A stretch of 64,000 bases of DNA from an uncultured Chloroflexia bacterium. GTDB lineage: Bacteria; Chloroflexota; Limnocylindria; Limnocylindrales; CSP1-4. The position numbers were made by a program, and so were the translations under genes. The DNA lies in contig CAVVCZ010000005.1 in NCBI GenBank assembly GCA_963746845.1, positions 224,001-288,000 of the forward strand, read 5' to 3'. Below the pieces are notes generated by a model. That model was not told the origin of the DNA, did not search any database, and was given only the letters and a program-made list of their open reading frames with translations. Of the stretch, positions 4,838 through 64,000 are shown piece by piece (within the stretch, counting starts at the first letter, position 1; each line of letters starts with the position of its first letter).

Positions 4838-5470
4838 TCATCGCTTCACCGCCTCCTCGATCGAACTCGACCCTCTGCTCATCACGACCGACCCGGTCCG
4901 GACGAGCTCCTTGATTCCGTAGGTGCGCACGAGCGCGACGAACGCGTCGATCTCGCTCTCGGGTCCCGTGACCTCGACGATCACCGACTCCCCCGCGAGG
5001 TCGACGACCCGGCCCTTCGACAGCTCGACGAGCTTGAGGATCTCCGCCCGGTTCCCGTCGGTCGCCCGGATCTTCACGAGCGCGAGCTCCTGGGCCACGA
5101 CCGGCTCGGCCGTGACCTCCTGGACCTTCAGGACGTCGATGAGCCGGTAGAGCTGCTTCGCCGCCTGCTCGACCGCGACGTCGTCGCCGTGGAGGGTGAT
5201 CGTCATCCGGCTGATGTCCGGCTGGTCCGTGTGGCTGACCGCGAGCGAGTCGATGTTGAAGTTGCGCGCCCGCATCAGCGACGCGACCCGGTTCAGGACG
5301 CCCGGCTTGTTCAGGACGATGACGATCAGCGTGTGGCGGCGGGTCTCGCCGCCGCCCGGGAGCGCCCGGGGCGGTGGTGCGGCGTGGGCGGGCGAGGCCG
5401 GGGACGCCGAACCGGATGCGGCGCCCGCCGAAGCGGGCGGGCGACCGTTCGAGCCGGCGTCGCCACTCAC
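4838..5470 (-). CDS. ilvN: Acetolactate synthase small (regulatory) subunit with low-complexity N-terminal extension
   Basis: NKPGVLNRVASL, FNIDSLAV, KQLYRLIDVLKV, ELVRTG; GTG 5470 overlaps ilvB stop. Confidence 0.92.
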   Translation of the reverse strand: MSGDAGSNGRPPASAGAASGSASPASPAHAAPPPRALPGGGETRRHTLIVIVLNKPGVLNRVASLMRARNFNIDSLAVSHTDQPDISRMTITLHGDDVAVEQAAKQLYRLIDVLKVQEVTAEPVVAQELALVKIRATDGNRAEILKLVELSKGRVVDLAGESVIVEVTGPESEIDAFVALVRTYGIKELVRTGSVVMSRGSSSIEEAVKR

Positions 5471-7332
5471 TCGTCCGCCCCTTCCCACGTCTCGATCAGG
5501 TCGGACAGGCCCTTGCCGGCGGGCATCATCGGGAAGACGTTCTGCTCCTCGGCGATCTCGAACCAGACGAGGGCCGGTCCGTCGACCGCCTGGGCGGCGC
5601 GGATCGCCTCGTCGACGTCCTCGGGCCGCCTGGCCCGGAAAGCCGGGATCCCGAACGCGTCCGCGAGCTTGGCGAAGTCCGGGCCGGGCAGGTGGGCGGA
5701 GTGGTAGTTGCCCGCGTAGATGATCTCCTGCCACTGCCGGATCATCCCGAGCTTCTTGTTGTCGAGGAGCGCGATCTTCACCGGGATCCGGTCGGCGACG
5801 AGGGTCATCAGCTCCTGGAACGTCATCTGGAAGCCGCCGTCGCCCGTGATCGCCCAGGTCTCGCGCTCCGGGGCGCCGAGTGCCGCGCCCATCGCCGCGG
5901 GGACGCTGTAGCCCATCGTCCCGAGCCCACCCGAGCTGACGTGGGTGTTCGGCCGGCGGAACCCGGCGTACCGGGCGAGCCACATCTGGTTCTGGCCCAC
6001 GTCGGCGACGTACGTGGCGGCATGGTCCGTCAGCTCGCCGATCCGCTCGATCACGTAGTCGGCCGAGAGCAGCCCATCGCGCCAGGCGCCCGAGCCGTGC
6101 CACGAGCTGCCTTCCGACTCGCGTCGCCAATCCGCGAGCTCCGCGAAGTAGTCGGCGCGGACGGCCGGGTCGACCGGCTCGACCATCGGCAGGAGGGCCG
6201 CGAGCACACGCTTGGCGTCGCCGACGATCGGGACCTCGACCGCGACGTTCTTCCCGATCTCGGCCGGGTCGATGTCGACGTGGACGATCCGGGCGTACGG
6301 CGCGTAGGTCCGGACGTTGCCGGTGACGCGGTCGTCGAACCGCATCCCGATCGCGAGCAGCAGGTCCGCCGACTGGATCGCCCTGTTGACGTGCTTCCAG
6401 CCGTGCATCCCCATGTAGCCGTAGCTGAGCGGGTGCGTCTCGTCGATGGCGCCGATCCCGAGGAGCGTGTGCGCGACCGGGATCTGGGCCTTCTCGGCGA
6501 GCGCGACGAGCTCGTCCCAGGCCTCCGCATGGAGGACACCGTGGCCCGCGAGGATCACCGGCCGCTTCGCCTTCGCGAGCTCCGCGGCGGCGAGCTTCAG
6601 CTGGCGGCCGTTCGCGTCGAGATTCGGCCGGAAGCCGGGCAGCCCCGCGACGACCTCGTCGTGGGTCGGGTGGGGCGCCGACGTCTCCTGCTGGAGCGCG
6701 TCCTTCGTGATGTCGACGTGGACGGGCCCGGGCCGGCCGGACCGGGCGATGTGGAACGCCTCGGCCAGGACGCGCGGCAGGTCGTTCGCGTCCCGGACGA
6801 GGTAGTTGTGCTTCGTCATCGGCAGGGTGATGCCGTTGATGTCGATCTCCTGGAACGCGTCCTTGCCGATCAGGGCGGACGGGACGTTGCCGGTGATCGC
6901 GACCATCGGGACGGAGTCGAGGAGGGCCGTCCCGATCCCCGTCACGAGGTTCGTCGCGCCCGGTCCGGAGGTCCCCATGCAGACCCCGACCTGGCCGGTG
7001 ACCCGGGCGTAGCCGTCGGCGGCGTGGGCGCCGCCCTGCTCGTGCCGGACGAGGATGTGGCGGAGCTCCGGGTAGTCGCCGAGGACGTCGTACAGGGGCA
7101 GGATCACGCCGCCGGGGTAGCTGAAGAAGACGTCGACGCCCTGGAGGAGGAGGGCCTCGCAGACGACGTCGGCCCCGATCCGGGTCCGCTTCCTCGGTCG
7201 CGAATCGTCGAGCATCGCCCGGCGGGCGGCCTCGACCGCCGCCGCGTGGGCGGTCCCGTCGCCGGGGATGTGGCTGCGCCGATCCGTTGCCGGACTCGGC
7301 GGCGCGCCGGCCTTTCCTGTCGTCATCGTCAT
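5467..7332 (-). CDS. ilvB: Acetolactate synthase large subunit
   Basis: YPGGVILPLYD, RHEQGGAHAADGYAR, TSGPGATN, DVGQNQMW, TPP motif GDGGFQM...NKKLGM; start 7332 or 7326. Confidence 0.96.
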   Translation of the reverse strand: MTMTTGKAGAPPSPATDRRSHIPGDGTAHAAAVEAARRAMLDDSRPRKRTRIGADVVCEALLLQGVDVFFSYPGGVILPLYDVLGDYPELRHILVRHEQGGAHAADGYARVTGQVGVCMGTSGPGATNLVTGIGTALLDSVPMVAITGNVPSALIGKDAFQEIDINGITLPMTKHNYLVRDANDLPRVLAEAFHIARSGRPGPVHVDITKDALQQETSAPHPTHDEVVAGLPGFRPNLDANGRQLKLAAAELAKAKRPVILAGHGVLHAEAWDELVALAEKAQIPVAHTLLGIGAIDETHPLSYGYMGMHGWKHVNRAIQSADLLLAIGMRFDDRVTGNVRTYAPYARIVHVDIDPAEIGKNVAVEVPIVGDAKRVLAALLPMVEPVDPAVRADYFAELADWRRESEGSSWHGSGAWRDGLLSADYVIERIGELTDHAATYVADVGQNQMWLARYAGFRRPNTHVSSGGLGTMGYSVPAAMGAALGAPERETWAITGDGGFQMTFQELMTLVADRIPVKIALLDNKKLGMIRQWQEIIYAGNYHSAHLPGPDFAKLADAFGIPAFRARRPEDVDEAIRAAQAVDGPALVWFEIAEEQNVFPMMPAGKGLSDLIETWEGADE

Positions 7333-7423
7333 CGGTCCCTGCCTGCCCTCATGTGTTCGCCGTCGCTCCTCGTCAGAGCGGCGCTCCCCTCTCCGCCGCG
7401 CTGTCGTCATCCGGTCGCCGGCC

Positions 7424-7455
7424 AACAAAAAGACCCTCGCCACCCGGCGAGGGTC
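7424..7455 (-). terminator. Attenuator terminator of ilvB leader
   Basis: Minus strand GACCCTCGCC-GGGT-GGCGAGGGTC followed by TTTTTGTT, 27 nt after the leader peptide stop. Confidence 0.88.
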
Positions 7456-8087: not shown

Positions 8088-8123
8088 ATTCGACTCCTTC
8101 CGAGTCTGTCGAGGTCGTCGGCC

Positions 8124-8197
8124 CCTGGCAACCGGGCGGTCTTCCGGAGAAGATCCCTGGCTTTGCGTCCCCGCCTCGCGACGGGTTTGCCCTGGAC
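8124..8197 (-). ncRNA. Cyclic di-GMP-I (GEMM) riboswitch aptamer
   Basis: CAGGGCAAACCCGTC-GCGA-GGCGGGGACGCAAAGCCAGGGATCT...AGACCGCCCGGTTGCC matches GEMM hallmarks GGCAAACC / GNRA loop / GGACGCAAAGCC / GGTTRCC. Confidence 0.92.
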
Positions 8198-8338
8198 AGT
8201 GAGCACGGCGGAGGGACACCCGTCCCTCGAACCCGACGATGGGCGGTTCGTCACCCCGTGGACACGGGACGAAGGTCCCGGCCCGCCTCGACGGGTGGGG
8301 GAGTTGTCGGCGGGCACCGCGCCGCCGGGACGGCCCGA

Positions 8339-8899
8339 TCAGGACGCGGCGAGGTCCCCGGCGGCGGCCGCGCCCTGCCGGCCCCGGCGCATCACGACGA
8401 CGAGCAGGACGAACACGCCGGCCGCCAGCAGGACGTCACCCACGCTGAAGACGTTCGCGAAGGGGACCCAGCGCGGAAGGGCGAACCGGTCGATCAGGAC
8501 CGGCAGGTTCGGGCTGGCGACGACGGCGCTGTTCGAGTAGATGGTCGGCGCCGTCTTGCCGAGGCTCGCGAGTGCCTCGGGCGTCGCCGGCATGAACCCG
8601 CCGTTCGTGATGATCGCGGCCATGTTGCAGGCGGCACCGAGGACGATCAGGGGCAGCCCGGGCAGATCGAGGTTGCGGAGGACGGCAACGACCACGAGCA
8701 GGGTCGTCGCGACGTACAGGATCGGACCGGCGTCGCCGACCCGGGACGCGACCGCGTCCGAGAACAGCACGACCTGACCGAGGAAGCCGACGACGATCAG
8801 CGGCGCCCACCGGAAGCGGATCTCCGCGATCGCCGAAAGCCGGCCGCCCGTGGCCAGTCCGACCACGATGCCCGCGACGAGGGCGTACAGGATGAACAT
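8339..8899 (-). CDS. DUF5317-type membrane protein, copy 1 (186 aa)
   Basis: MFILYALVAGIVVGLATGGRL..., N-x6-NGGFMP, LIDRF, NVFSVGDVLL; ATG 8899; C-terminal part of the 1034-aa track ORF. Confidence 0.82.
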   Translation of the reverse strand: MFILYALVAGIVVGLATGGRLSAIAEIRFRWAPLIVVGFLGQVVLFSDAVASRVGDAGPILYVATTLLVVVAVLRNLDLPGLPLIVLGAACNMAAIITNGGFMPATPEALASLGKTAPTIYSNSAVVASPNLPVLIDRFALPRWVPFANVFSVGDVLLAAGVFVLLVVVMRRGRQGAAAAGDLAAS

Positions 8900-8907
8900 C
8901 GTCCGTC

Positions 8908-11601
8908 CTAGCTCGCCGGCTGGATCGCGGTCCGGCGGGGCGCCGGCTCCGGGCGGACGGCGCCCGGCTTCGACCACAGGGCCGCGGCGATCGTCGGGCC
9001 GTCGGCGGGGCGGGCGAAGTAGTAGCCCTGGCCCAGCTCGCAGCCGAGGTCGCGCAGCGCGGTGAGCTGGCCCTCGTCCTCGATCCCCTCGGCCACGACC
9101 TGGAGGTTGAGCGTCCGGCCGAGGGCGATGATCGCCCGCGCGAACGCCCACTCGTCCGACGATGCCTCGGCGCTGCCGATGAACTCGCGGGCGATCTTCA
9201 GGATGTCGACCTGGAACCGGCGCAGGTAACCGAGCGACGAGTACCCGGTCCCGAAGTCGTCGATCGCGATCCGGATCCCGAGCGCCCGCAGGGCCTGCAG
9301 GCGGGCGATCGTCGTGTGCGTGTCGTGGAACATCGCCGACTCGGTCAGCTCGAGGATCAGGTCGGTCGCCGGGAAGCCCGTCTCGGTGAGGATCGACTCG
9401 ACGTCCTCGACGAACGTCGGCTGCTGGAGCTGGGCGGCGGACAGGTTGACGGACAGGGCGATCCGCTCCGTTCGCCGGTCCCGCCACGACTCGACCTCGC
9501 GGCAGCTCTCGTGGAGCATCCACCGGCCGAGGGCGAGGATCGTCCCGTTCTCCTCGGCGAGGCGGATGAACTCGTCCGGGCGGAGGATCCCGCGGGTCGG
9601 GTGGCGCCATCGGACGAGGGCCTCGACGCCGTACGTCGCCCCGGTCGCGAGCGTGACGATCGGCTGGAAGTGGGCGAGGAGCTCGCCGCGGCCGATGCTC
9701 TTCGTCAGCTCGGACGCGAGCGCATGTCGCTCGACGAGGGCGGCATGCATCGTCGACTCGAACACGGCATAGCGGTTCTTGCCGGCCGCTTTCGCGGTGT
9801 ACATCGCGACGTCGGCGTTGCGCAGCAGCTCGTCGGCCCGCTCGCTCTCCGCGCCGGCCCGGGCGGCGGCGACGCCGATGCTCGCGGCGATCGAGATCTC
9901 CTGCCCGTCGATCTGGAGCGGCGCCTGGAGCGCCTCGAGGATCCGCCGGCAGACTGCGATGCTCTCGGACAGGTCGGCCGTGTCCTCGAGGAGGATCGCG
10001 AATTCGTCGCCGCCGAGCCGCGCCGCGAGGTCGGTGGCCCGGACGCAGCCGCGGACGCGATCCCCGACGGCGATCAGGAGCCGGTCGCCGGCCACGTGTC
10101 CGAGCGTGTCGTTGACCACCTTGAAGTCGTCGAGGTCGATGAACAGGACGACGGGCCGGCGGATACCGCTGTCGGCCAGGATCCGACCATCCACCTGCTC
10201 GACGAACAGGCTCCGGTTCGCGAGCCCGGTCAGCGGGTCGTGATAGGCCTGGAACCGGAGCTGCTCCTTGAGCCGCGACAGCTCGGCCAGCGACTGCTCC
10301 AGCTGACCGTTCTCCAGGGCGACCGCGGCCTGGTTCGCGAGCGTCTCGAGCAGCCGCAGGTCGTCGTCGGTGAAGACCGTCCCCTCGGTCAGGCGGTTGC
10401 CGACGAGCATCGAGCCGATCAGGGTGGACTCGCCGCGGAGCGGGGCGACCATCGCCTGGCGCAGGGTCGCCCGCTCCGGTTCGAACGGCGACGGGCTGAA
10501 GAAGAACGCGTGCGGCTCGTTCCGGATCCGGCGGGCGATCGGATCGTCCGGCGTGAACGGCACCGGGACCATGGCCGTCGCGGGCGCGCCGTCGATGCTC
10601 GTCGTCCGGAGCGCGTCCTCGCCGGGGATCCGCGGATGGAGCAGCACCTCGGCGCGCTCGGCGCGGAACATCTCGCGGGCGTGGTCGAGCAGGGCGACGA
10701 TCGCCGAGTCGAGCTCCGGCGAGTGCTGGAGGATCCGCCCGGACTGGTACAGGAACTCGAGCCGCTCGCCCTTCTCGCGCTCCGACAGATAGGCCCGGTA
10801 GGCGAGGAAGACCGTCACGAGCGGGACGATCAGGAGCCAGAGCAGGCCCGGGTCGAGCCACAGGATCGACACGGCCAGGAGCGCCAGGCTCGTGTTGGCG
10901 ACGGCGACGAGGCCGCCGAACTGGATCATCTGTGGCAGCTTCTGGAACTGCGGCGCGCCGCCCGACAGCGAGATCGCCGTGGCGATCGTCACCGCCGACA
11001 GCACGGTCGTCGTCAGCGTCGCGGCGAACGCCGCCACCCAGTCCGCAGCGCTGGGCGTCCCCTCCAGGTTCGCGATCAGGTGGAACACGACGAGCGCGGC
11101 GGTCGCGCCCAGCCCGAAGTTGGTCACGTTGAACGCGAACTTCAGGGGAGGCTGGCGGAACCAGGCAAGCGCCACGGCGGACCCGATCAGGATCACGGCG
11201 AGGATGTAGTCGTGCGGACTGAGGAGGAACAGCCCGATGACGGCCGGGAACTCGCTCAGCGAGAAGCTGTGGGCCTCGCGCCGGAAGTGGACGTCGATGA
11301 CCTTCAGCTCGGCCAGGCAGAAGCCCGCAGCGATCAGGGGCCACGGGAAGTCGATCGGGACGAGGGAGACGTGCGGCCGCGGCTCGATGACCAGGATGTC
11401 GAGGAGGACGGCGACCAGGGCGAGCGAGGCCGTGAAGGCCCACACCCGGAGCGCGGGCGAGCCGACACCGACGCGCAGCCGCTCGAGGCTGCGCCCGCCG
11501 GCGGCGACCATGTCCTGTTCGAGATCGTCCTTCGCTCGGACCGTCGCCGGGCGTCCTGGCGGATTCCCGCCCACGCGCGCCTCCATTCCGTCCCGTGGCA
11601 C
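8908..11601 (-). CDS. Multi-TM sensor + GAF + diguanylate cyclase (GGDEF) + EAL phosphodiesterase
   Basis: ~7 hydrophobic segments with LKFAFN motif, GAF (LANQAAVALEN), HDPLTGLANR, RATD I-site, GGDEF, VEALVRW, DDFGTGYSS, EGIE, GQGYY; start may be 11586 or 11511. Confidence 0.93.
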   Translation of the reverse strand: MPRDGMEARVGGNPPGRPATVRAKDDLEQDMVAAGGRSLERLRVGVGSPALRVWAFTASLALVAVLLDILVIEPRPHVSLVPIDFPWPLIAAGFCLAELKVIDVHFRREAHSFSLSEFPAVIGLFLLSPHDYILAVILIGSAVALAWFRQPPLKFAFNVTNFGLGATAALVVFHLIANLEGTPSAADWVAAFAATLTTTVLSAVTIATAISLSGGAPQFQKLPQMIQFGGLVAVANTSLALLAVSILWLDPGLLWLLIVPLVTVFLAYRAYLSEREKGERLEFLYQSGRILQHSPELDSAIVALLDHAREMFRAERAEVLLHPRIPGEDALRTTSIDGAPATAMVPVPFTPDDPIARRIRNEPHAFFFSPSPFEPERATLRQAMVAPLRGESTLIGSMLVGNRLTEGTVFTDDDLRLLETLANQAAVALENGQLEQSLAELSRLKEQLRFQAYHDPLTGLANRSLFVEQVDGRILADSGIRRPVVLFIDLDDFKVVNDTLGHVAGDRLLIAVGDRVRGCVRATDLAARLGGDEFAILLEDTADLSESIAVCRRILEALQAPLQIDGQEISIAASIGVAAARAGAESERADELLRNADVAMYTAKAAGKNRYAVFESTMHAALVERHALASELTKSIGRGELLAHFQPIVTLATGATYGVEALVRWRHPTRGILRPDEFIRLAEENGTILALGRWMLHESCREVESWRDRRTERIALSVNLSAAQLQQPTFVEDVESILTETGFPATDLILELTESAMFHDTHTTIARLQALRALGIRIAIDDFGTGYSSLGYLRRFQVDILKIAREFIGSAEASSDEWAFARAIIALGRTLNLQVVAEGIEDEGQLTALRDLGCELGQGYYFARPADGPTIAAALWSKPGAVRPEPAPRRTAIQPAS

Positions 11602-11677: not shown

Positions 11678-12244
11678 TCAGGAAGTTGGCGCGTCCGCGG
11701 GTCGGTCCGGGGTCCCGTCGGCGCGCCGCTCCCGGCGCATCGCCGCGGCGATCGCGACAGCGACCCCGACCCCGATCAGCACGTCGCCGACGCTGAAGAC
11801 GTTGGCCATCGGCAGCCACGCGGGCAGCGCGAAGACGTCGGTCAGCGGCTCGAGGGCTGGTCGTTCGACCACGACGCTGTTCGTGTTCGGGCCGACGCCC
11901 ATTCCGAGGGTCGCCAGCGCGGCCGGGCTGGCGGGCATCGCTCCGCCGTTCGCGAGGATGGCCGCGAGGTTGAGGCCGGCCCCGACCGCGATCAGCGGGA
12001 CGCCGGTGATCCCGAGGTTGGCGAGGACGACGATCCCGACGAGGGCGGTCGACCCGACGTAGATGGCCCGTGCGACGTCCGGGGCGAGGCCGTCCGCCAG
12101 CGGTGAGAAGAGGACGAGCTGGATCGCCAGGGCGACGAAGACAAGTGGGCCGAGCCGGAAGTGGACCTCAGCCAGCCGCTCGAGGCGACCGCCGAGAAGC
12201 AGCCCGACGACGATCCCGGCGATGAGCCCATAGAGGATGAACAC
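11678..12244 (-). CDS. DUF5317-type membrane protein, copy 2 (188 aa)
   Basis: GTG start VFILYGLIAGIVVGLLLGGRL..., NGGAMP, LTDVF, NVFSVGDVLI; clear paralog of 8339-8899. Confidence 0.82.
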   Translation of the reverse strand: MFILYGLIAGIVVGLLLGGRLERLAEVHFRLGPLVFVALAIQLVLFSPLADGLAPDVARAIYVGSTALVGIVVLANLGITGVPLIAVGAGLNLAAILANGGAMPASPAALATLGMGVGPNTNSVVVERPALEPLTDVFALPAWLPMANVFSVGDVLIGVGVAVAIAAAMRRERRADGTPDRPADAPTS

Positions 12245-12363
12245 GGTCCCAGTATCCGCGGCTGTGGGGCGTCGGCGCGGGGTCGGCGAGGCGGAGCCGG
12301 GCCCTGTGCTAGCCTCCGGCTCGTCTTGCACCCCCCGCCCAACCGCCTGCAGCCCGGACCACC

Positions 12364-56988: not shown

Positions 56989-57992
56989 CGCTGCACAGGC
57001 CGCGCGACGATCGGCGTCCGCAGCGCGCCGAGGCCGTCGACTCGAAGGACGACCTCGTCGCCGGGCTCGAGATAGCGGCCGAGGGTGGCGTCCTTGACCT
57101 CGAGCAGGCACCCGGTCCCGACGGTCCCCGATCCGAGCAGGTCGCCCGGTCGGAGACGAACGTCGGCCGACGCGCGCGCGACCATCTGGCCGAACGAGAA
57201 CTGCGCGTCCGACCAGCGTCCACGCGAAGTCTCGGCCCCGTTGACGGTCGCGGTCATCGCCAGGTCCGGGCCGCTCGCGCCCGCGGCGCGCGCGCGAACC
57301 AGCTCATCCGGGGTCACGAGCCACGGCCCGATCGTCGAGGCGAAGTCCTTGCCCTTCGCCGGGCCCAGCCTGACGGCGGTCTCCTCGCGCTGGAGGTCAC
57401 GCGCCGACCAGTCGTTGAGGATCGTGTACCCGCCGATCGCCTCCTCGCCCCGCTCGGGGGACAGGTCGACCGCGGGCGTGTCGATCACGGCCGCGACCTC
57501 CAGCTCGTAGTCGAGCTCGGCCGAGCCGGCCGGAGCCCAGACCGGATCGTCCGGGCCGCGGATCTCTGACACGTTGCTGAAGTAGAAGATCGGCAGCCGG
57601 TACCACGTCTCCGGCACCTCGCCGCCGCGTCGCTCCCACATCGTCCGTACGTGCCTCTCGAACGCGTAGAAGTCGCGCAGGCTCGGGGGTCGGAGGATCG
57701 GCGGACCGAACGCGAGGTCCGCCGCGTCGAGGACCGCATCGTCGTCCTCCCGTGGCACGAAGCCATCGACGAGCTCGCCGATGGCCTCCACGCGCAGCCC
57801 GCGCGCGAGGTGGTCGTCCAGCGTCGTCACGGGCTGGCGATGCAGGACGCGGTCGTGGGCGAGGTTGCGGTCGGCGGCGATGGCCCGTCGGCGAGCGATA
57901 TCGAGGTCGACCCAGCCGTCGTCGAGCGCCGCGACCAGCCGCCACGGAGCCCCCGACGGGGCACGGAGGTCCCGGACGTGAGCGAGCTTCAT
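56985..57992 (-). CDS. Fumarylacetoacetate hydrolase family protein
   Basis: RDFYAFERH, FYFSN, LDYELE, NDWSARD, KGKDF, GSGT; near hmgA and hppD. Confidence 0.9.
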   Translation of the reverse strand: MKLAHVRDLRAPSGAPWRLVAALDDGWVDLDIARRRAIAADRNLAHDRVLHRQPVTTLDDHLARGLRVEAIGELVDGFVPREDDDAVLDAADLAFGPPILRPPSLRDFYAFERHVRTMWERRGGEVPETWYRLPIFYFSNVSEIRGPDDPVWAPAGSAELDYELEVAAVIDTPAVDLSPERGEEAIGGYTILNDWSARDLQREETAVRLGPAKGKDFASTIGPWLVTPDELVRARAAGASGPDLAMTATVNGAETSRGRWSDAQFSFGQMVARASADVRLRPGDLLGSGTVGTGCLLEVKDATLGRYLEPGDEVVLRVDGLGALRTPIVARPVQR

Positions 57993-58111
57993 GGGCGGGT
58001 GACGGTGGGCAGGATCACCGCCCGAGTGTAAGGTCGCCCATCCCTCGTCGACGGGTCCTGCGTCGAACGGGGGATGACAGGATGGGTCGATCGGTGCCAG
58101 CCTGTGCCGTC

Positions 58112-60571
58112 ATGACCCCTTCGCCGCCCCATCGGCCGGTCCCGGCGGACCCGTCGCCGGCCGTTGCCACGCCCGGAGCCTCGATCCTCGTCGGGCTCGT
58201 CCGCCTGATCGGGGTCGTCGCGATCGTGATCGGGCTCCTCGAGGGCCTCGCCGGGATCACCTACCGCGAGCCGCGGGCGGTCCTGCTCGGGCTGACGGCC
58301 ACGACCTACGGGATCTGGGTCGCCTCACGGGCCGGCGGCCTGACCGGCCCGCAGCGCGAGTCGACGATCACCCGGATCGCCGTGCTGACCCTCGCCTTGA
58401 TCGGCCTGGCGGCGACCCTTCAGCCGTCGATGGCCACGGCGATGGCGATCGCGTCCCTCCTGCCGGCGGTCATCGTCACTCCGCTCGTCTCGAGCCGGAC
58501 CGTCCTCCGCCTCCTGATCGCCAGCGGGGTCGTCGGGGCCTGGAGCGTCTTCGTCGGTGCCCTGCTGCCGGACCCGAACCGGCTGCCCCTCACGGCGCAG
58601 ACGGCGTTCGCGTTCGTGACGCTCGTCCTCGCCTACACCTTCCTGATCATGTTCCTGTGGGAGGTCAGCCGACGCCTGAAGGACACCGCGGCGGACCTCC
58701 GCAGCGTCATCGCGATGTCCGGCGACCTGGCCCAGTCGCTCGACCCGCGCCTGGTCGGCGACCGGATCGCCGTCCACATCGCCCGCGCGGTCGGCGCCGA
58801 CGATTGCGCGCTGAGCTACTGGGACCGGACGACGAACCGGGTCGTGACCCTCGGCTACGAACCGCCGGAGCGGCGCGGCGCCCTGAACGAGACGTACGCC
58901 GTCGATGACTACCCGGCGACGCGCGAGGTGCTCGAGACGCAGCGCCCGACGCGGATCGACGTCGACGACAAGACCGCCGACCCGGCCGAGGTGCGCTACC
59001 TGGCGGAGATCGGCCATCGCTCGATGGCGATGGTGCCGCTCGTCGCTGCCGGCCGAACGGTCGGCTTGATCGAGGTGACGGCCGCGCGACGCCGGGCGTT
59101 CGGCGACCGCGCCGTCGAGCTCGCGACGATGCTCGCGGGCGAGGCGGCGATGGCCCTCGAGAACGCCCGCCTGTACGACCAGATCCGGCACCAGGCCCTT
59201 CACGACGGGCTGACCGGGCTCGCGAACCGCGTCCTGTTCCGCGACCGGGTCGAGCACGCGGTCGAGCGCAGCCGGCGCGCCGGCGGCCAGCTGGCGCTGC
59301 TCTTCATCGACCTCGACGACTTCAAGACCCTCAACGACACCCACGGCCATGCCCGCGGCGACGACGTGCTCTCGACGGTCTCGGGCCGCCTGCTCGGCGT
59401 GCTGCGGCCGGTCGACACGGCCGCGCGTCTGGGCGGCGACGAGTTCGCGGTGCTCCTCGAGGACGTGACCAGCGAGGCCGATGCGTTGGCGGTCGCGACG
59501 CGGATCGCCGAGTCGTTCCGTCAGCCCCTCCTCTTCGACGACGTGCCGATCCGCGTCGCCGCGAGCATCGGCGTCGCGATCGGGCGTGGACCCGAGACCG
59601 CCGACGACCTGCTCCGCAACGCGGACGTCGCGATGTACGCGGCGAAGCAGTCGTCCCGCGGCGGAGCCGAGATCTTCCGGCCGAGCCTCCGCGACGGCGC
59701 CGCCGAGCGGGCGGCCCGGGCGGAGCGCCTCCGCGGCGTCGAGCAGCGCGACGAGCTCCGGCTCGACTTCCAGCCGATCGTCGACCTGGCGACGACGGCC
59801 ATCGTCGCGGTGGAGGCGCTCGTGCGCTGGCAGCCGCCGGACGGCCCGGTGCTCATGCCGGGTGAGTGGATCGACCTTGCCGAGGAGAGCGGAGACATCG
59901 TCCCGATCGGACGCTGGATCCTGCGCGAGGCGTGCCGCCAGGCCCGCGACTGGCAGATCCGCCTCGACCGCCCGGATCTCCGCGTCAGCGTGAACCTGTC
60001 CGCCCGCCAGTTCGCCGAGCACGACATCCTCGCGACGGTCCGGACCGTCCTCGACGAGACGGGCCTGCCGCCGGCCAGCCTGATCCTCGAGATCACGGAG
60101 AGCGGACTGATGCGCCGCACGGCGTCCACGATCGCGCGGCTGTCCGAGCTCCGCGAGCTGGGCTGCCATCTCGCGATCGACGACTTCGGGACCGGCTACT
60201 CGTCATTGAGCTACCTCGAGCGCTTCCCGATCGACATCCTGAAGATCGACCGGACCTTCGTGTCGTCGACCGGTGCCGGCGCATCGCCGATCGCCCGGGC
60301 CGTCATCGACCTGGGTCGGACGCTCCACCTCGAGGTCATCGCCGAGGGGATCGAACACGCCGAGCAGGCCCGCTGGCTGGCCGACCTCGGGTGCCGCTAC
60401 GGCCAGGGCTTCCTGTACGCCCGACCGGTGAGCGCCGCGGCGCTCGAGGCGCTGCTCGCCGAGGGCGCGGGGCTCGCCGGTCCGACCGACGGCCAGGCCG
60501 GCGGCACCCGCGGCGGCGAACCCGATCGGGAGGCGCCGCGGCTGCGGCTGGTCAGCGGAGACGACCGCTAG
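58112..60571 (+). CDS. Multi-TM + GAF + GGDEF + EAL protein
   Basis: ~6 TMs, GAF, HDGLTGLANR, RPVD I-site, GGDEF, VEALVRW, DDFGTGYSS, LKIDR, EGIE; start 58112 or 58082. Confidence 0.92.
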   Translation: MTPSPPHRPVPADPSPAVATPGASILVGLVRLIGVVAIVIGLLEGLAGITYREPRAVLLGLTATTYGIWVASRAGGLTGPQRESTITRIAVLTLALIGLAATLQPSMATAMAIASLLPAVIVTPLVSSRTVLRLLIASGVVGAWSVFVGALLPDPNRLPLTAQTAFAFVTLVLAYTFLIMFLWEVSRRLKDTAADLRSVIAMSGDLAQSLDPRLVGDRIAVHIARAVGADDCALSYWDRTTNRVVTLGYEPPERRGALNETYAVDDYPATREVLETQRPTRIDVDDKTADPAEVRYLAEIGHRSMAMVPLVAAGRTVGLIEVTAARRRAFGDRAVELATMLAGEAAMALENARLYDQIRHQALHDGLTGLANRVLFRDRVEHAVERSRRAGGQLALLFIDLDDFKTLNDTHGHARGDDVLSTVSGRLLGVLRPVDTAARLGGDEFAVLLEDVTSEADALAVATRIAESFRQPLLFDDVPIRVAASIGVAIGRGPETADDLLRNADVAMYAAKQSSRGGAEIFRPSLRDGAAERAARAERLRGVEQRDELRLDFQPIVDLATTAIVAVEALVRWQPPDGPVLMPGEWIDLAEESGDIVPIGRWILREACRQARDWQIRLDRPDLRVSVNLSARQFAEHDILATVRTVLDETGLPPASLILEITESGLMRRTASTIARLSELRELGCHLAIDDFGTGYSSLSYLERFPIDILKIDRTFVSSTGAGASPIARAVIDLGRTLHLEVIAEGIEHAEQARWLADLGCRYGQGFLYARPVSAAALEALLAEGAGLAGPTDGQAGGTRGGEPDREAPRLRLVSGDDR

Positions 60572-61033
60572 AACGGCTTCAGCACCATCAGCCAGACGAG
60601 CACGATCAGCCCGCCGAGCCCGACGAGCGCCAGTGCCTCGGGCCGCCGGTTGTCGACGCGTCGGGCGAGCTCCGCACGGTCGATCGGAGCCACACCGTCC
60701 TTCCCTGCGAGCGCCTCGCGGAGCGGGTAGTAGAACCCGGCGCCGAGGGCCCACATCCCGACGAGCACGGCGATCAGGACGACGTACGAGGCCACGACCC
60801 AGCCGGCGAGCAGCATGTTGGCGTTCCAGGCCGCGCCGAGCCCGCCGACCGACGAGGAGGAGCAGGCCGAGGTACATCGTCTGGTTCCCTCGCGACGACA
60901 TCGCCAGCAGCAGCCGGGCGGTGTCCGGGTCCGGGTTGCGCCGGACCGCGAACACGGCCCACATCGACACCCCGTGGAGGAACACGAACAGGACGAGTCC
61001 GACCAGGTGGACGAACACGAGCCACTGGTACAT
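60568..61033 (-). pseudogene. DUF2269-like 4-TM membrane protein with frameshift near 60848
   Basis: MYQWLVFVH...LLLLV | GGLGAAW...WLMVLKPF; span 3n+1; SD GGGAGG. Confidence 0.65.
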
Positions 61034-61141
61034 GGGCAGCCCTCCCGAGCCGTCGTACCTCCCGACGGATCAGCCCGAGTCTAGCCGCGGCGTCGACCGC
61101 CCGACACGCTCCCCAGGCTCGGTACGCGCACCCCCCGGGAC

Positions 61142-61307
61142 GTGCGCAACGCAACCGGGGTGAGCACTACGCACTCGTGCGGGGCACGGCGCCGGTCAAA
61201 GCGTCCGGAACGCCAACCACGGTTGCGTTCCGGACCCCTTGCGCCGCCCAAGCCGCCGTCGACGGCGCGTGCGGGTCCGTAGTGCAACCGTGAGTTGCAT
61301 ACCGGAC
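61142..61307. repeat. ~166-bp element with imperfect terminal inverted repeats, copy B
   Basis: GGGGTGAGCACTACGCAC left, CGTAGTGCAACC right; same termini as 50007-50169 but different interior. Confidence 0.6.
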
Positions 61308-62664: not shown

Positions 62665-63165
62665 ATGAACGAGATCGCCGGCCGGCTCCGCGACGCGGGC
62701 ACCGAGCTCCTGGACCTGCGCGGACCGCTGGTCGCGGGCGAGCCCTGGCCGCTGAGCGCCGCCTACGGCACCGAGCCGGAGGCCGACTGGGGACCGCGCG
62801 AGGTCCTCGCCCACGTGAACGAGATGCTCCCGTACTGGACCGCCCAGCTGCGGGACGTGCTCGCGGGCGACCCGGCGACGGCCGTCCCGTTCGGGCGGGT
62901 CGCCACGGATCCGGCGCGCCTGGGCCGGATCGCGGCGGACCGGAAGCTGACAGCCGGCGAGCTGCTCGACGGGATCGACGCCGGGCTCGTGACCGCCACC
63001 ACGTTCGTGAGTGGGCTGACCCCGGTCGATCTCGGCCGGCGCGGACTTCACCCGGCGCGCGGCGAGATGACGATCGAGGCAGCGCTCGAGCCATTCCTCG
63101 TCGGCCACCTCGAGGGTCACGTCGTCCAGCTGCGGGAGATCCTCGCCCGCCGCGTCCCGGCCTGA
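62665..63165 (+). CDS. DinB/YfiT superfamily protein
   Basis: WGPREVLAHVNE...GHLEGHVVQL three-His pattern; divergent from hppD. Confidence 0.78.
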   Translation: MNEIAGRLRDAGTELLDLRGPLVAGEPWPLSAAYGTEPEADWGPREVLAHVNEMLPYWTAQLRDVLAGDPATAVPFGRVATDPARLGRIAADRKLTAGELLDGIDAGLVTATTFVSGLTPVDLGRRGLHPARGEMTIEAALEPFLVGHLEGHVVQLREILARRVPA

Positions 63166-63357
63166 TCCGTCGCCCCCGGATCGCCGCCGCGGGGCCGGTA
63201 ACCGAGCCAAATTTGGTGCCCGGATGCCACGATCCCGTGCTCAACAGGACCTTCGGCGGGGCGGTCATGGTACCCACGGGCTATTCCCGCCAAACCCCCG
63301 AGGACCGTACGGTCCCTTTCCGCGCGCGTCCGGGAGGCGCGAAGGAGGGATCGTCCA

Positions 63358-63456
63358 ATGCAGAAGGTCAAGTCGCTGGGGTTCAGGATCGTATTGGTCC
63401 TGTCCGCGCTTGCCAGCTCGGCACTCGTGCTCGAAGCCGGCCAGCGCTGGCGCTGA
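63358..63456 (+). CDS. Small signal-peptide-like protein P3 (32 aa, ends EAGQRWR)
   Basis: SD GAAGGAGG; MQKVKSLGFRIVLVLSALASSALVLEAGQRWR; paralog of 7889-7993. Confidence 0.82.
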   Translation: MQKVKSLGFRIVLVLSALASSALVLEAGQRWR

Positions 63457-63570
63457 ACCCACACCGTCCCGCGACTTCGGACTCATCCGGCGGGCCTCCG
63501 ACCGCCACCGCGCCTCGGCGCAACCGACGAGCCGCCCGTCCTCCACGGGCGGCTCTTCGATTCCCGGGGA

Positions 63571-64000
63571 TCAGTGGTCGCGGCCCTCGCGCAGGACGCT
63601 CCGCAGCACGAACGCGACGTTCGCCGGCCGCTCCGCCAGCCGCCGCATGAAGTACGGGTACCACTGCGTCCCATAGGGGACGTACACCCGGACACCGAAG
63701 CCGGCCTTCACGAGCCGCTCCTGCAGGTCGCGCCGCACGCCGTACAGCATCTGGAACTCGAACCGCTCCGGCGCGATCCCGTGCTCGCGAACGAAGGCCA
63801 CCGCGCGTCCGATCAGCCGCTCGTCGTGGGTCGCGAGCGCCGGGAACTCGCCCTCGGCGAGCAGCCGCTCCATCAGCTCGCCATACGCCTTGTCGACATC
63901 CGGCTTGTCCGGGAACGCGACGGCCGCGGGCTCGACGTACGCGCCCTTGCACAGCCGGACCCGTGCCCGCTCGACGATCAGCCCCTCGATGTCGGCGCCG
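63571..64000 (-). CDS. Proline dehydrogenase (C-terminal part; starts beyond window)
   Basis: RLCKGAY, ATHD, FEFQMLYG, YVPYG, YFMRRLAERPAN. Confidence 0.92.
   Translation of the reverse strand, partial: GADIEGLIVERARVRLCKGAYVEPAAVAFPDKPDVDKAYGELMERLLAEGEFPALATHDERLIGRAVAFVREHGIAPERFEFQMLYGVRRDLQERLVKAGFGVRVYVPYGTQWYPYFMRRLAERPANVAFVLRSVLREGRDH

Follow-up and report, generated by a model that had tools for sequence, protein, structure and literature searches.

P3, a putative membrane micro-protein gene lacking the c-di-GMP riboswitch of its paralogues in an uncultured Chloroflexota bacterium

We analyzed a stretch of 64,000 nucleotides (nt), hereafter the window (G000:C5:224001-288000; 72% G+C), from genome G000 of an uncultured Chloroflexota bacterium, the assembly of which comprises 3.56 Mb in 12 contigs. 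Towards one end of the window, on the forward strand, lies P3 (63358–63456), a 32-codon open reading frame (ORF) with a Shine-Dalgarno (SD) sequence and a terminator-like hairpin of its own. Towards the other end, on the opposite strand, two related ORFs, P1 and P2, follow a riboswitch aptamer for cyclic di-GMP (c-di-GMP), the stop of P1 being located 4 nt before the start of P2, and genes for DUF5317 membrane proteins and a GAF-GGDEF-EAL protein lie close by (Table 1). The designations P1 to P4 refer to the family peptides of G000. On balance, and from comparisons of sequences, we lean towards the view that P3 is a translated, single-pass membrane micro-protein, similar to P2 but not gated by a riboswitch, that belongs to a class-restricted family and has DUF5317 as its likeliest partner.

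Residues 19–31 of P3 (ASSALVLEAGQRW, 13 amino acids (aa)) are identical to the corresponding residues of P2. The codon-by-codon comparison of this shared tail revealed six differences (P3/P2: GCC/GCA, TCG/TCC, GCA/GCT, GAA/GAG, GCC/GCG, and GGC/GGA), all at third positions and without a single replacement. These are exactly the pairs reported in an earlier note on this DNA, which had seen in them the action of purifying selection on the protein and had also attributed to P3 its own SD, found here as GAAGGAGGG, with purine-rich SD-like sequences at the same place in the orthologues. The codons of residues 1–18 have diverged further, with 12 replacement changes, 3 synonymous changes and 3 identities. 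The two ORFs aligned with a score of 35 (shuffle maximum 8), and their 200-nt flanks gave scores of 10.0 and 10.5 (shuffle maxima 16 and 17.5). The likeness between P3 and P2 is therefore confined to the reading frame, since the flanks align no better than shuffled sequences.

The comparison of 12 P3 orthologues over a core of 27 codons (K5 to W31) identified 4, 2 and 13 variable sites at codon positions 1, 2 and 3, respectively, and the last 13 codons had 1, 0 and 8. Mean nonsynonymous divergence (dN) was 0.044 and mean synonymous divergence (dS) 0.323, a ratio of 0.135. The P3 frame yielded 7 distinct translations versus 11–12 in each of the five other frames, where stops interrupted between 2 and 12 of the sequences. 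Judging from these substitution patterns, P3 is a real 32-codon protein-coding gene under purifying selection, and the selection proposed on the basis of the tail alone thus extends to the orthologues. The earlier note had foreseen two observations that would speak against its proposal, broken frames in relatives and a non-coding repeat as the source of the similarity; all 12 orthologues keep the P3 frame while the other frames break, and the likeness to P2 ends at the ORF borders, with third-position periodicity in the orthologues. We consider it scarcely conceivable that the similarity corresponds to a non-coding repeat or RNA element, or that P3 is a leader ORF for a downstream gene. Some of the nucleotide invariance described below does exceed what coding would need, but neither the synonymous differences in the tail nor the periodicity would be expected of such an element, and three sub-types of the family share invariants at the protein level. 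As for a leader ORF, P3 would have no gene to lead, since the terminator-like hairpin comes next and the proline dehydrogenase gene beyond it is convergent.

Contigs from RNA libraries (metatranscriptomes) of three studies cover 63333–63567 at 95–100% identity, which is a hint only, because such contigs reveal neither the strand of an RNA nor its ends and presence in a library is not proof of transcription. In two runs of one study, the contigs start at 63333/63334, contig ends not defining a transcription start, and parts of 63150–63332 are not covered by contigs in the same two runs, a gap from which we draw nothing.

P3 matches the profile of its family with 63.2 bits (E=1.1e-16). The family consists of peptides of 29–34 residues with a fixed ruler, R-x16-A-G-x-R-W, and P3, with its 32 aa, has all of R10, A27, G28, R30 and W31 at the x16 spacing and a single residue after the tryptophan. 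A search of 1.84 billion representative proteins with the family profile (E<=1e-3) returned 233 representatives. Among the 149 motif instances in the best 150 of these 233, 147 show a spacing of exactly 16 residues between the arginine and A-G-x-R-W, and in 128 the chain ends 0–2 residues past the tryptophan. Thirty-two members from 24 loci could be aligned without internal gaps, and this alignment revealed six invariant positions (R10, A22, A27, G28, R30, and W31) and conservation along one helical face (L15, L18/A19, A22/L23, and E26/A27). No match at threshold was obtained with Pfam or NCBIfam for any of the 32 members. A match to Pfam PAGK (PF15284; 17.6 bits versus a cut-off of 22.8 in 3 of the 32 members) was set aside as a chance match of hydrophobic N-termini. 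The exact P3 protein is present in public collections, in a cluster of 16 sequences named, where they are named, "hypothetical protein", and the ESM Atlas returned only unnamed 31–33-aa clusters of "hypothetical protein". Our literature search found no published work on the R-x16-AGxRW family.

At genus level, 23 of the 24 other genomes (a set of 24 that includes the unpublished G010) contain a family member; at class level the count is 100 out of 401 (66/137 in family f1, 29/153 in f4, 3/92 in f3, and 1/16 in f2). In a draw of 401 genomes from the phylum (E<=1e-4), the family was found in 10, G000 included, all belonging to families f1 and f4 of the same class. The class and phylum draws, of 401 genomes each, thus place the family in one Chloroflexota class only. 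The named relatives of the DUF5317 gene next to P1 and P2 come from metagenome-assembled genomes labelled "Candidatus Limnocylindrales" and "uncultured Chloroflexia", which marks the source of the window as one of the Chloroflexota rather than an actinobacterium. The P1 type, located directly behind the aptamer, is the most widespread member, and copies of the P2/P3 type follow a P1-type gene or stand alone. A genome-wide search for further micro-ORFs of the family, which the earlier note had recommended, revealed a fourth copy in G000, P4, 13.4 kb past the end of the window. P4 is situated downstream of a gene with a YHS-like C-terminus, and its leader contains a conserved box of its own (GACCGGGCACTCC-N-TCGA-GGGG) and no riboswitch, with orthologues in six other loci.

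In other genera, the aptamer was detected directly upstream of the peptide in 36 of 40 loci centered on family peptides. This count was obtained with R1, a covariance model that we built from 24 aptamers. Rfam alone detected the riboswitch in 12/20 and 9/20 loci in two batches, and the loci without an Rfam riboswitch in both batches corresponded to P3/P4 orthologues, contig ends or riboswitch-less copies. Of 42 family loci, 36 have a GAF-GGDEF-EAL gene upstream in the same orientation, and DUF5317 lies within 900 nt upstream of the peptide in at least 33 of 40. Downstream of the units come unrelated housekeeping genes: one family has infC-rplT-pheST in this position, another an ilvB-like gene. 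The best explanation for these arrangements is an ancestral unit consisting of a promoter block, a c-di-GMP-I(-GGC) riboswitch and one or more peptides, downstream of GAF-GGDEF-EAL and DUF5317 genes. In the window, a gene for an acetolactate-synthase-like thiamine pyrophosphate (TPP) enzyme (5467–7443, − strand) lies in the same orientation as P2, some 450 nt downstream of it, and such a neighbor occurs in 9 of 42 loci; as P2 has a terminator-like hairpin behind it, we took P2 and this gene to be separate units.

The P3 slot is flanked by genes for 4-hydroxyphenylpyruvate dioxygenase (HPPD), a DinB-like protein and proline dehydrogenase/P5C (putA), and the synteny comparison advocated in the earlier note showed this HPPD/putA slot to be conserved across genera. 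The description of P3 as an orphan is consequently no longer tenable, given this conservation and the existence of P4. Two other statements, that P3 lacks a recognizable riboswitch and that it lies about 2.8 kb from a second GAF-GGDEF-EAL gene, were borne out. Rfam searches at E<=10 over 63100–63650 found no c-di-GMP family (the only matches were sub-threshold chance matches, such as CcsR1 with 15.6 versus 65.3 bits), R1 detected no aptamer at P3 or any of the 12 orthologue loci to which it was applied, the distance is 2787 nt, and the same gene set surrounds the slot peptide in other genera. The slot peptide is accompanied by a riboswitch in loci L057, L059, L062 and L063, the first two of which also have GGDEF-EAL upstream, with DUF5317 in addition in L059. 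In L066, L071 and L094, DUF5317 precedes the peptide and the riboswitch is absent, and in L067 and the genus of the window the slot has neither. Since other genera carry the order GGDEF-EAL, DUF5317, riboswitch, peptide in this slot, the second GAF-GGDEF-EAL gene is best read as the remainder of a second complete module. P3 looks like a standard unit minus the aptamer, a copy that lost its riboswitch and the adjacent DUF5317 in this genus, and the cell can probably make the P3 peptide whatever the riboswitch reads. A 176-aa ORF without a Pfam match (60633–61163, + strand) is found between the second GGDEF-EAL gene and the HPPD gene, in the place occupied by DUF5317 in other genera.

All 22 aligned riboswitch-less loci of the P2/P3 type have in common an upstream block of the form GTAC-N2-A-N3/4-C[CT]AT[TG][CG]C. 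A strict version of this pattern matched 32 of 97 loci (including two duplicate fetches of the same place or sequence), with 0–1 matches in each of 20 shuffles, and 29 of these 32 matches were located no more than 260 nt upstream of a family peptide. The block is also found before riboswitch-bearing units. It starts 74–79 nt ahead of the aptamer in nine of them and 54 nt ahead in the P1/P2 unit of the window, giving a total of 10 of 48 units with a loose pattern, and inspection by eye revealed degenerate versions in most of the remaining units. We infer that this block would act as a promoter or operator, and P3 is probably under the same transcriptional control as the riboswitch units. By keeping the block without the aptamer, P3 would be ungated rather than differently wired. 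The proposal that P3 is independently regulated thus holds only for the missing aptamer, because P3 shares the GTAC...C[CT]AT block and the TANNNT element with the riboswitch units. Elsewhere in G000, a near-match to a looser form of the block was found only at G000:C1:~111706 (− strand, GTACGAATGGGCTATGCC), upstream of an ORF starting with VTSDIRSGRP, and the factor acting on the block may have a second target there.

Table 1. Position and supporting evidence of P3, its paralogues and the associated features
Feature	Position	Strand	Description and evidence
P3 gene	63358..63456	+	32 aa, MQKVKSLGFRIVLVLSALASSALVLEAGQRWR; one hydrophobic helix; R10-x16-A27-G28-x-R30-W31
Shine-Dalgarno sequence GAAGGAGGG	63341..63349	+	Read from sequence; 8 nt before ATG
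Conserved upstream block GTACCCACGGGCTATTCC (promoter- or operator-like)	63270..63287	+	Pattern hits and alignment
TACGGT, -10-like TANNNT element	63308..63313	+	About 20 nt after block; GTA...T columns conserved in 22 loci
Conserved 3' untranslated region	63457..63528	+	Box ACCCACACCGTCC; hairpin GGCGG-GCCTCCGA-CCGCC (CCUCC loop, 63488-63506); near-invariant, 11 orthologues
Terminator-like GC hairpin GAGCCGCCCG/CGGGCGGCTC, tail TTCGATTCC	63529..63564	+	Stem in 11/11 orthologues; 2 compensatory pairs at base
P2	7889..7993	-	34-aa paralogue of P3; second gene behind riboswitch
P1	7998..8087	-	29-aa family member, GTG start; first gene behind riboswitch
c-di-GMP-I-GGC riboswitch aptamer	8123..8200	-	Rfam RF03167, 63.2 bits (gathering score 59); R1, 95.8 bits
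DUF5317 membrane protein, directly upstream of riboswitch	8339..8899	-	Pfam PF17248, E=8.5e-25
GAF-GGDEF-EAL protein, first copy	8908..11601	-	
Second DUF5317 paralogue	11678..12331	-	
GAF-GGDEF-EAL protein, second copy	57752..60571	+	Ends 2787 nt before P3
P4	G000:C5:~300855-300950; locus L025:3047-3148	-	33 aa, MLSRITTAARVALPLAIVAAIALAAEAGQRWGH (...IALAAEAGQRWGH); genome-wide scan

About the first 70 nt of the 3' untranslated region (UTR) of P3, with the box ACCCAYACCGTCC and the hairpin GGCGG-GCCUCCGA-CCGCC, are near-invariant while the third positions of the ORF vary. Within the ORF, codons 5–11 (63370–63390, AAG TCG CWG GGG TTC AGG ATC) display no third-position change in the 12 orthologues, dS being about 0.3 elsewhere. 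The sole variable base of these codons (CTG/CAG) varies in concert with a C/T change in the 3' UTR box, its predicted pairing partner. Both 3' UTR boxes are unique in G000, which led us to reject a genomic repeat as their origin, and they were not seen behind the P3-slot peptides of other genera. An ORF on the antisense strand, with an SD-like GGAGG and an ATG in the conserved 3' UTR, was rejected as non-coding (three frames, 24–73 aa, variable stops), its ATG box being kept in 11 of the 12 orthologues. The tail TTCGATTCC of the terminator-like hairpin also follows hairpins after family peptides in other genera; a scan with a T-rich terminator rule found 0 sites at this hairpin.

The P3 mRNA is predicted to fold with −121.1 kcal/mol (z = −2.65; 2 of 200 shuffles fold as well). 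Codons 5–8 pair with the start of the 3' UTR in both the minimum-energy and the centroid folds, and the SD GGAGG pairs with the 3' CCUCC loop in the minimum-energy fold but not in the centroid fold. Nearly all the predicted pairs are invariant (covariation term −0.57), and the two compensatory pairs among the 54 both lie in the terminator, so that this structure is without covariation evidence because its pairs never vary. The conservation of the 3' UTR may reflect translational fold-back control, mRNA stability or a small RNA derived from the 3' UTR. Such features could also be those of a type-I-toxin-like membrane peptide, the translation of which would be checked by the folding of its own mRNA, with the SD and the beginning of the ORF paired to the 3' UTR and its CCUCC loop, perhaps together with an antisense RNA. 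The peptides are small, hydrophobic and present in several copies, the mRNA folds better than most shuffles, the 3' UTR and the third positions of codons 5–11 are invariant, and one of the 32 members gave a sub-threshold match to the NCBIfam TimP toxin model (NF040796, E=0.066). We nevertheless regard this explanation as distinctly improbable, as the pairing it invokes lacks variation and disappears at the SD in the centroid fold, our scan of the antisense strand found no conserved ORF or promoter, and no antitoxin RNA was seen for P3. Furthermore, the six positions are invariant across the class and accompanied by a fixed gene partner, whereas type I toxins are usually poorly conserved.

The fixed ruler and the one-sided conservation point to a membrane-spanning helix of set length packing on a partner, and DUF5317 is the best candidate for this partner because of the gene order. 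G000 has three DUF5317 paralogues, the two in the window and a third at G000:C1:69465-69911. The AlphaFold2 model of the protein encoded by 8339–8899 is helical, with a predicted local distance difference test (pLDDT) value of 89.7 and a predicted template modelling (pTM) score of 0.82, and a fold search of the PDB with this model gave no match at E<=0.001 (best TM score 0.25). The invariant residues of DUF5317 are N92, N99-G-G-x-M-P104, D137, N149 and S152-x-G-D155, with D155 situated where the last helix begins. A cytoplasmic C-terminus is suggested by the basic tail of this helix, and the invariant aspartates would then lie on the outer side. Many of the DUF5317 hits at class level are in frames of 650–800 aa, suggesting fusions.

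The same residues of P3 can be read as a Sec-type pre-peptide, with residues 1–22 as signal peptide and the remaining ten residues or so (LVLEAGQRWR) released as a signal, possibly after processing by DUF5317. A K/R-containing n-region, a short h-region and the sequence [AS]20-x-A22 followed by L23 in all 32 aligned members would suit this explanation, and the last of these features dominates among 147 cores (position 20: S in 109, A in 27, and T in 10; position 22: A in 124). The C-terminal decapeptide is, moreover, the most conserved part of the peptide, and one of the two invariant aspartates of DUF5317 lies in an S-x-G-D context. We consider processing of this kind unlikely, given that the invariant arginine keeps its 16-residue spacing in 147 of the 149 instances whereas the h-regions of signal peptides vary in length, that one helical face is conserved through the supposed h- and c-regions, and that the h-region would have only 5–9 residues. 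No peptidase fold could be recognized in DUF5317, and the idea of a peptidase gains nothing from its fold. The role suggested for P3 in the earlier note, as a source of the same released signal as P2, is therefore not favored, the arginine 16 residues before AGxRW and the conserved helical face fitting a membrane helix of fixed length better.

Several observations limit or weigh against our view of P3 as a membrane-spanning helix with DUF5317 as partner. When DUF5317 was co-folded with the peptides (alignments of 38 and 32 rows, respectively, the latter with P3 first), the score was 0.54 (best of three controls 0.01; runs agreeing in at least 97% of contacts; partner pLDDT at least 70) and surpassed a mark that 58 out of 80 solved complexes attain, as do 2 out of 110 mismatched pairs, but the range up to 0.60 contains 7 of the 80 solved complexes and both passing mismatches, so that the support is weak. 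DUF5317 is absent from the P3 locus, the three copies in G000 being elsewhere. It is also present in 305 of the 401 class genomes (a tally that takes in 12 unpublished genomes) versus 100 for the peptides, in 15/15 versus 0/15 genomes of genus g6 and in 9/11 versus 0/11 of genus g4. This spread implies either that DUF5317 is independent of the peptides or that the peptides have diverged beyond the reach of the profile. The hydrophobic core between R10 and E26 has only 15 residues, and the [AS]-x-A at positions 20–22 also fits a signal-peptidase site. Part of the conservation must be at the RNA level, as codons 5–11 and the 3' UTR are invariant in nucleotide sequence, and a strict sigma-70 scan of 63100–63650 found no canonical promoter.

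If P3 is indeed an ungated membrane micro-protein, it would supply a P2-like peptide that does not depend on the riboswitch, having retained the upstream block together with an SD and a terminator of its own. The helix might insert with its N-terminus inside and its C-terminus outside, which would place R10 at the inner and R30-W31 at the outer interface, and its small-residue face would pack on a membrane partner. One of the three DUF5317 paralogues would be the most likely partner, with its invariant aspartates at the outer end of the last helix, and binding of the peptide could modulate the c-di-GMP module. More tentatively, and with rather little confidence, we suggest that DUF5317 has the R-x16-AGxRW peptides as its dedicated ligands or substrates and that both form a feedback circuit with the neighboring GAF-GGDEF-EAL enzyme, in which the riboswitch gates P1 and P2, P3 and P4 set a basal level, and the ratio of gated to ungated peptide on DUF5317 tunes c-di-GMP turnover or an envelope function.

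Other elements were noted around the riboswitches of G000. A hairpin, GAGG(G/A)C-N4-6-G(T/C)CCTCC, is conserved between the upstream block and the aptamer at 8201–8260 (− strand) and in most riboswitch loci, and its CCUCC arm could be an anti-SD forming part of the expression platform. A second c-di-GMP-I-type aptamer (G000:C4:727366-727463, + strand; 67 bits with R1) is followed, within the next 110 nt, only by an unrelated hydrophobic micro-ORF of 31 codons (VSTARPRLVALLRVLVVAVVALAASASARPI) with an AGGAGG SD and a hairpin, which looks like micropeptide cargo of a different family. Two more aptamers (G000:C5:217386-217459 and G000:C4:602085-602157, both on the − strand, 55 bits each) lie ahead of two larger ORFs (495 and 315 aa) that are paralogues of each other and share the N-terminus M..GD.WASEPVPPRPRPAHRSH followed by a hydrophobic segment.

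The c-di-GMP riboswitches are usually thought to switch ordinary genes, such as those for adhesins, pili and flagella. The P1/P2 unit and the P3-slot orthologues of other genera belong to the c-di-GMP-I and c-di-GMP-I-GGC units (RF01051 and RF03167; the latter was reportedly described by Weinberg et al. 2017 in PNAS), and P3 differs from them in having no aptamer. In size, P3 is close to the small single-pass regulators KdpF, AcrZ, MgtS and CydX, single helices of about 30 residues that work by helix packing and whose genes often lie beside that of the partner. The searches of Pfam and NCBIfam with 32 members gave no sequence relation to these proteins, and the partner of P3 is itself only proposed. 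The TimP-type I toxins are alike in size, hydrophobicity, number of copies and structured mRNA, and the R-x16-AGxRW family differs in the strong conservation of its motif and gene order.

P3 can be regarded as a natural "aptamer deletion", for which riboswitch-bearing orthologues are available for comparison. It could therefore serve as a test of what the riboswitch adds and gives a handle on the function of the peptide that is independent of c-di-GMP gating. If the feedback circuit suggested above exists, micro-proteins would constitute a second, protein-level readout of c-di-GMP riboswitches that evolved independently in two phyla. The other phylum is that of Clostridioides difficile, for which a 2026 article describes c-di-GMP riboswitches driving small membrane proteins (PMC13724677); the same design appears here in uncultured soil and freshwater Chloroflexota. 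According to that article, the CD1980.2 family consists of small membrane-associated proteins of 58–60 residues encoded behind five class I c-di-GMP riboswitches, with four predicted helices, three N-terminal and one C-terminal and hydrophobic; their function is tied to sporulation and their molecular partner is unknown (PMC13724677). It also describes CD1667.1, CD1511.1 and CD2386.1 as riboswitch-less paralogues controlled through RgaR sites or antisense RNA, and reports no homologues outside C. difficile (PMC13724677).

As far as these descriptions go, the two systems are alike in having multicopy small membrane-associated proteins as direct cargo of c-di-GMP-I riboswitches, and the relation of the riboswitch-less paralogues to the gated ones is that of P3 and P4 to P1 and P2. 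P3 does not have the four-helix architecture described for CD1980.2, as its 32 aa contain a single hydrophobic stretch that we predict to form one helix, and it further differs in its phylum, in its own R-x16-AGxRW motif and in its ties to DUF5317 and GGDEF-EAL. The riboswitch-less copy in a conserved slot, the shared upstream block and the fixed ruler are new here. The peptide is much smaller than those of C. difficile and built on an unusually rigid ruler, with a candidate partner, DUF5317, of unknown fold. By analogy, the closest precedent for P3 would be the riboswitch-independent paralogues of CD1980.2, of which it may be the counterpart in an unrelated family and phylum.

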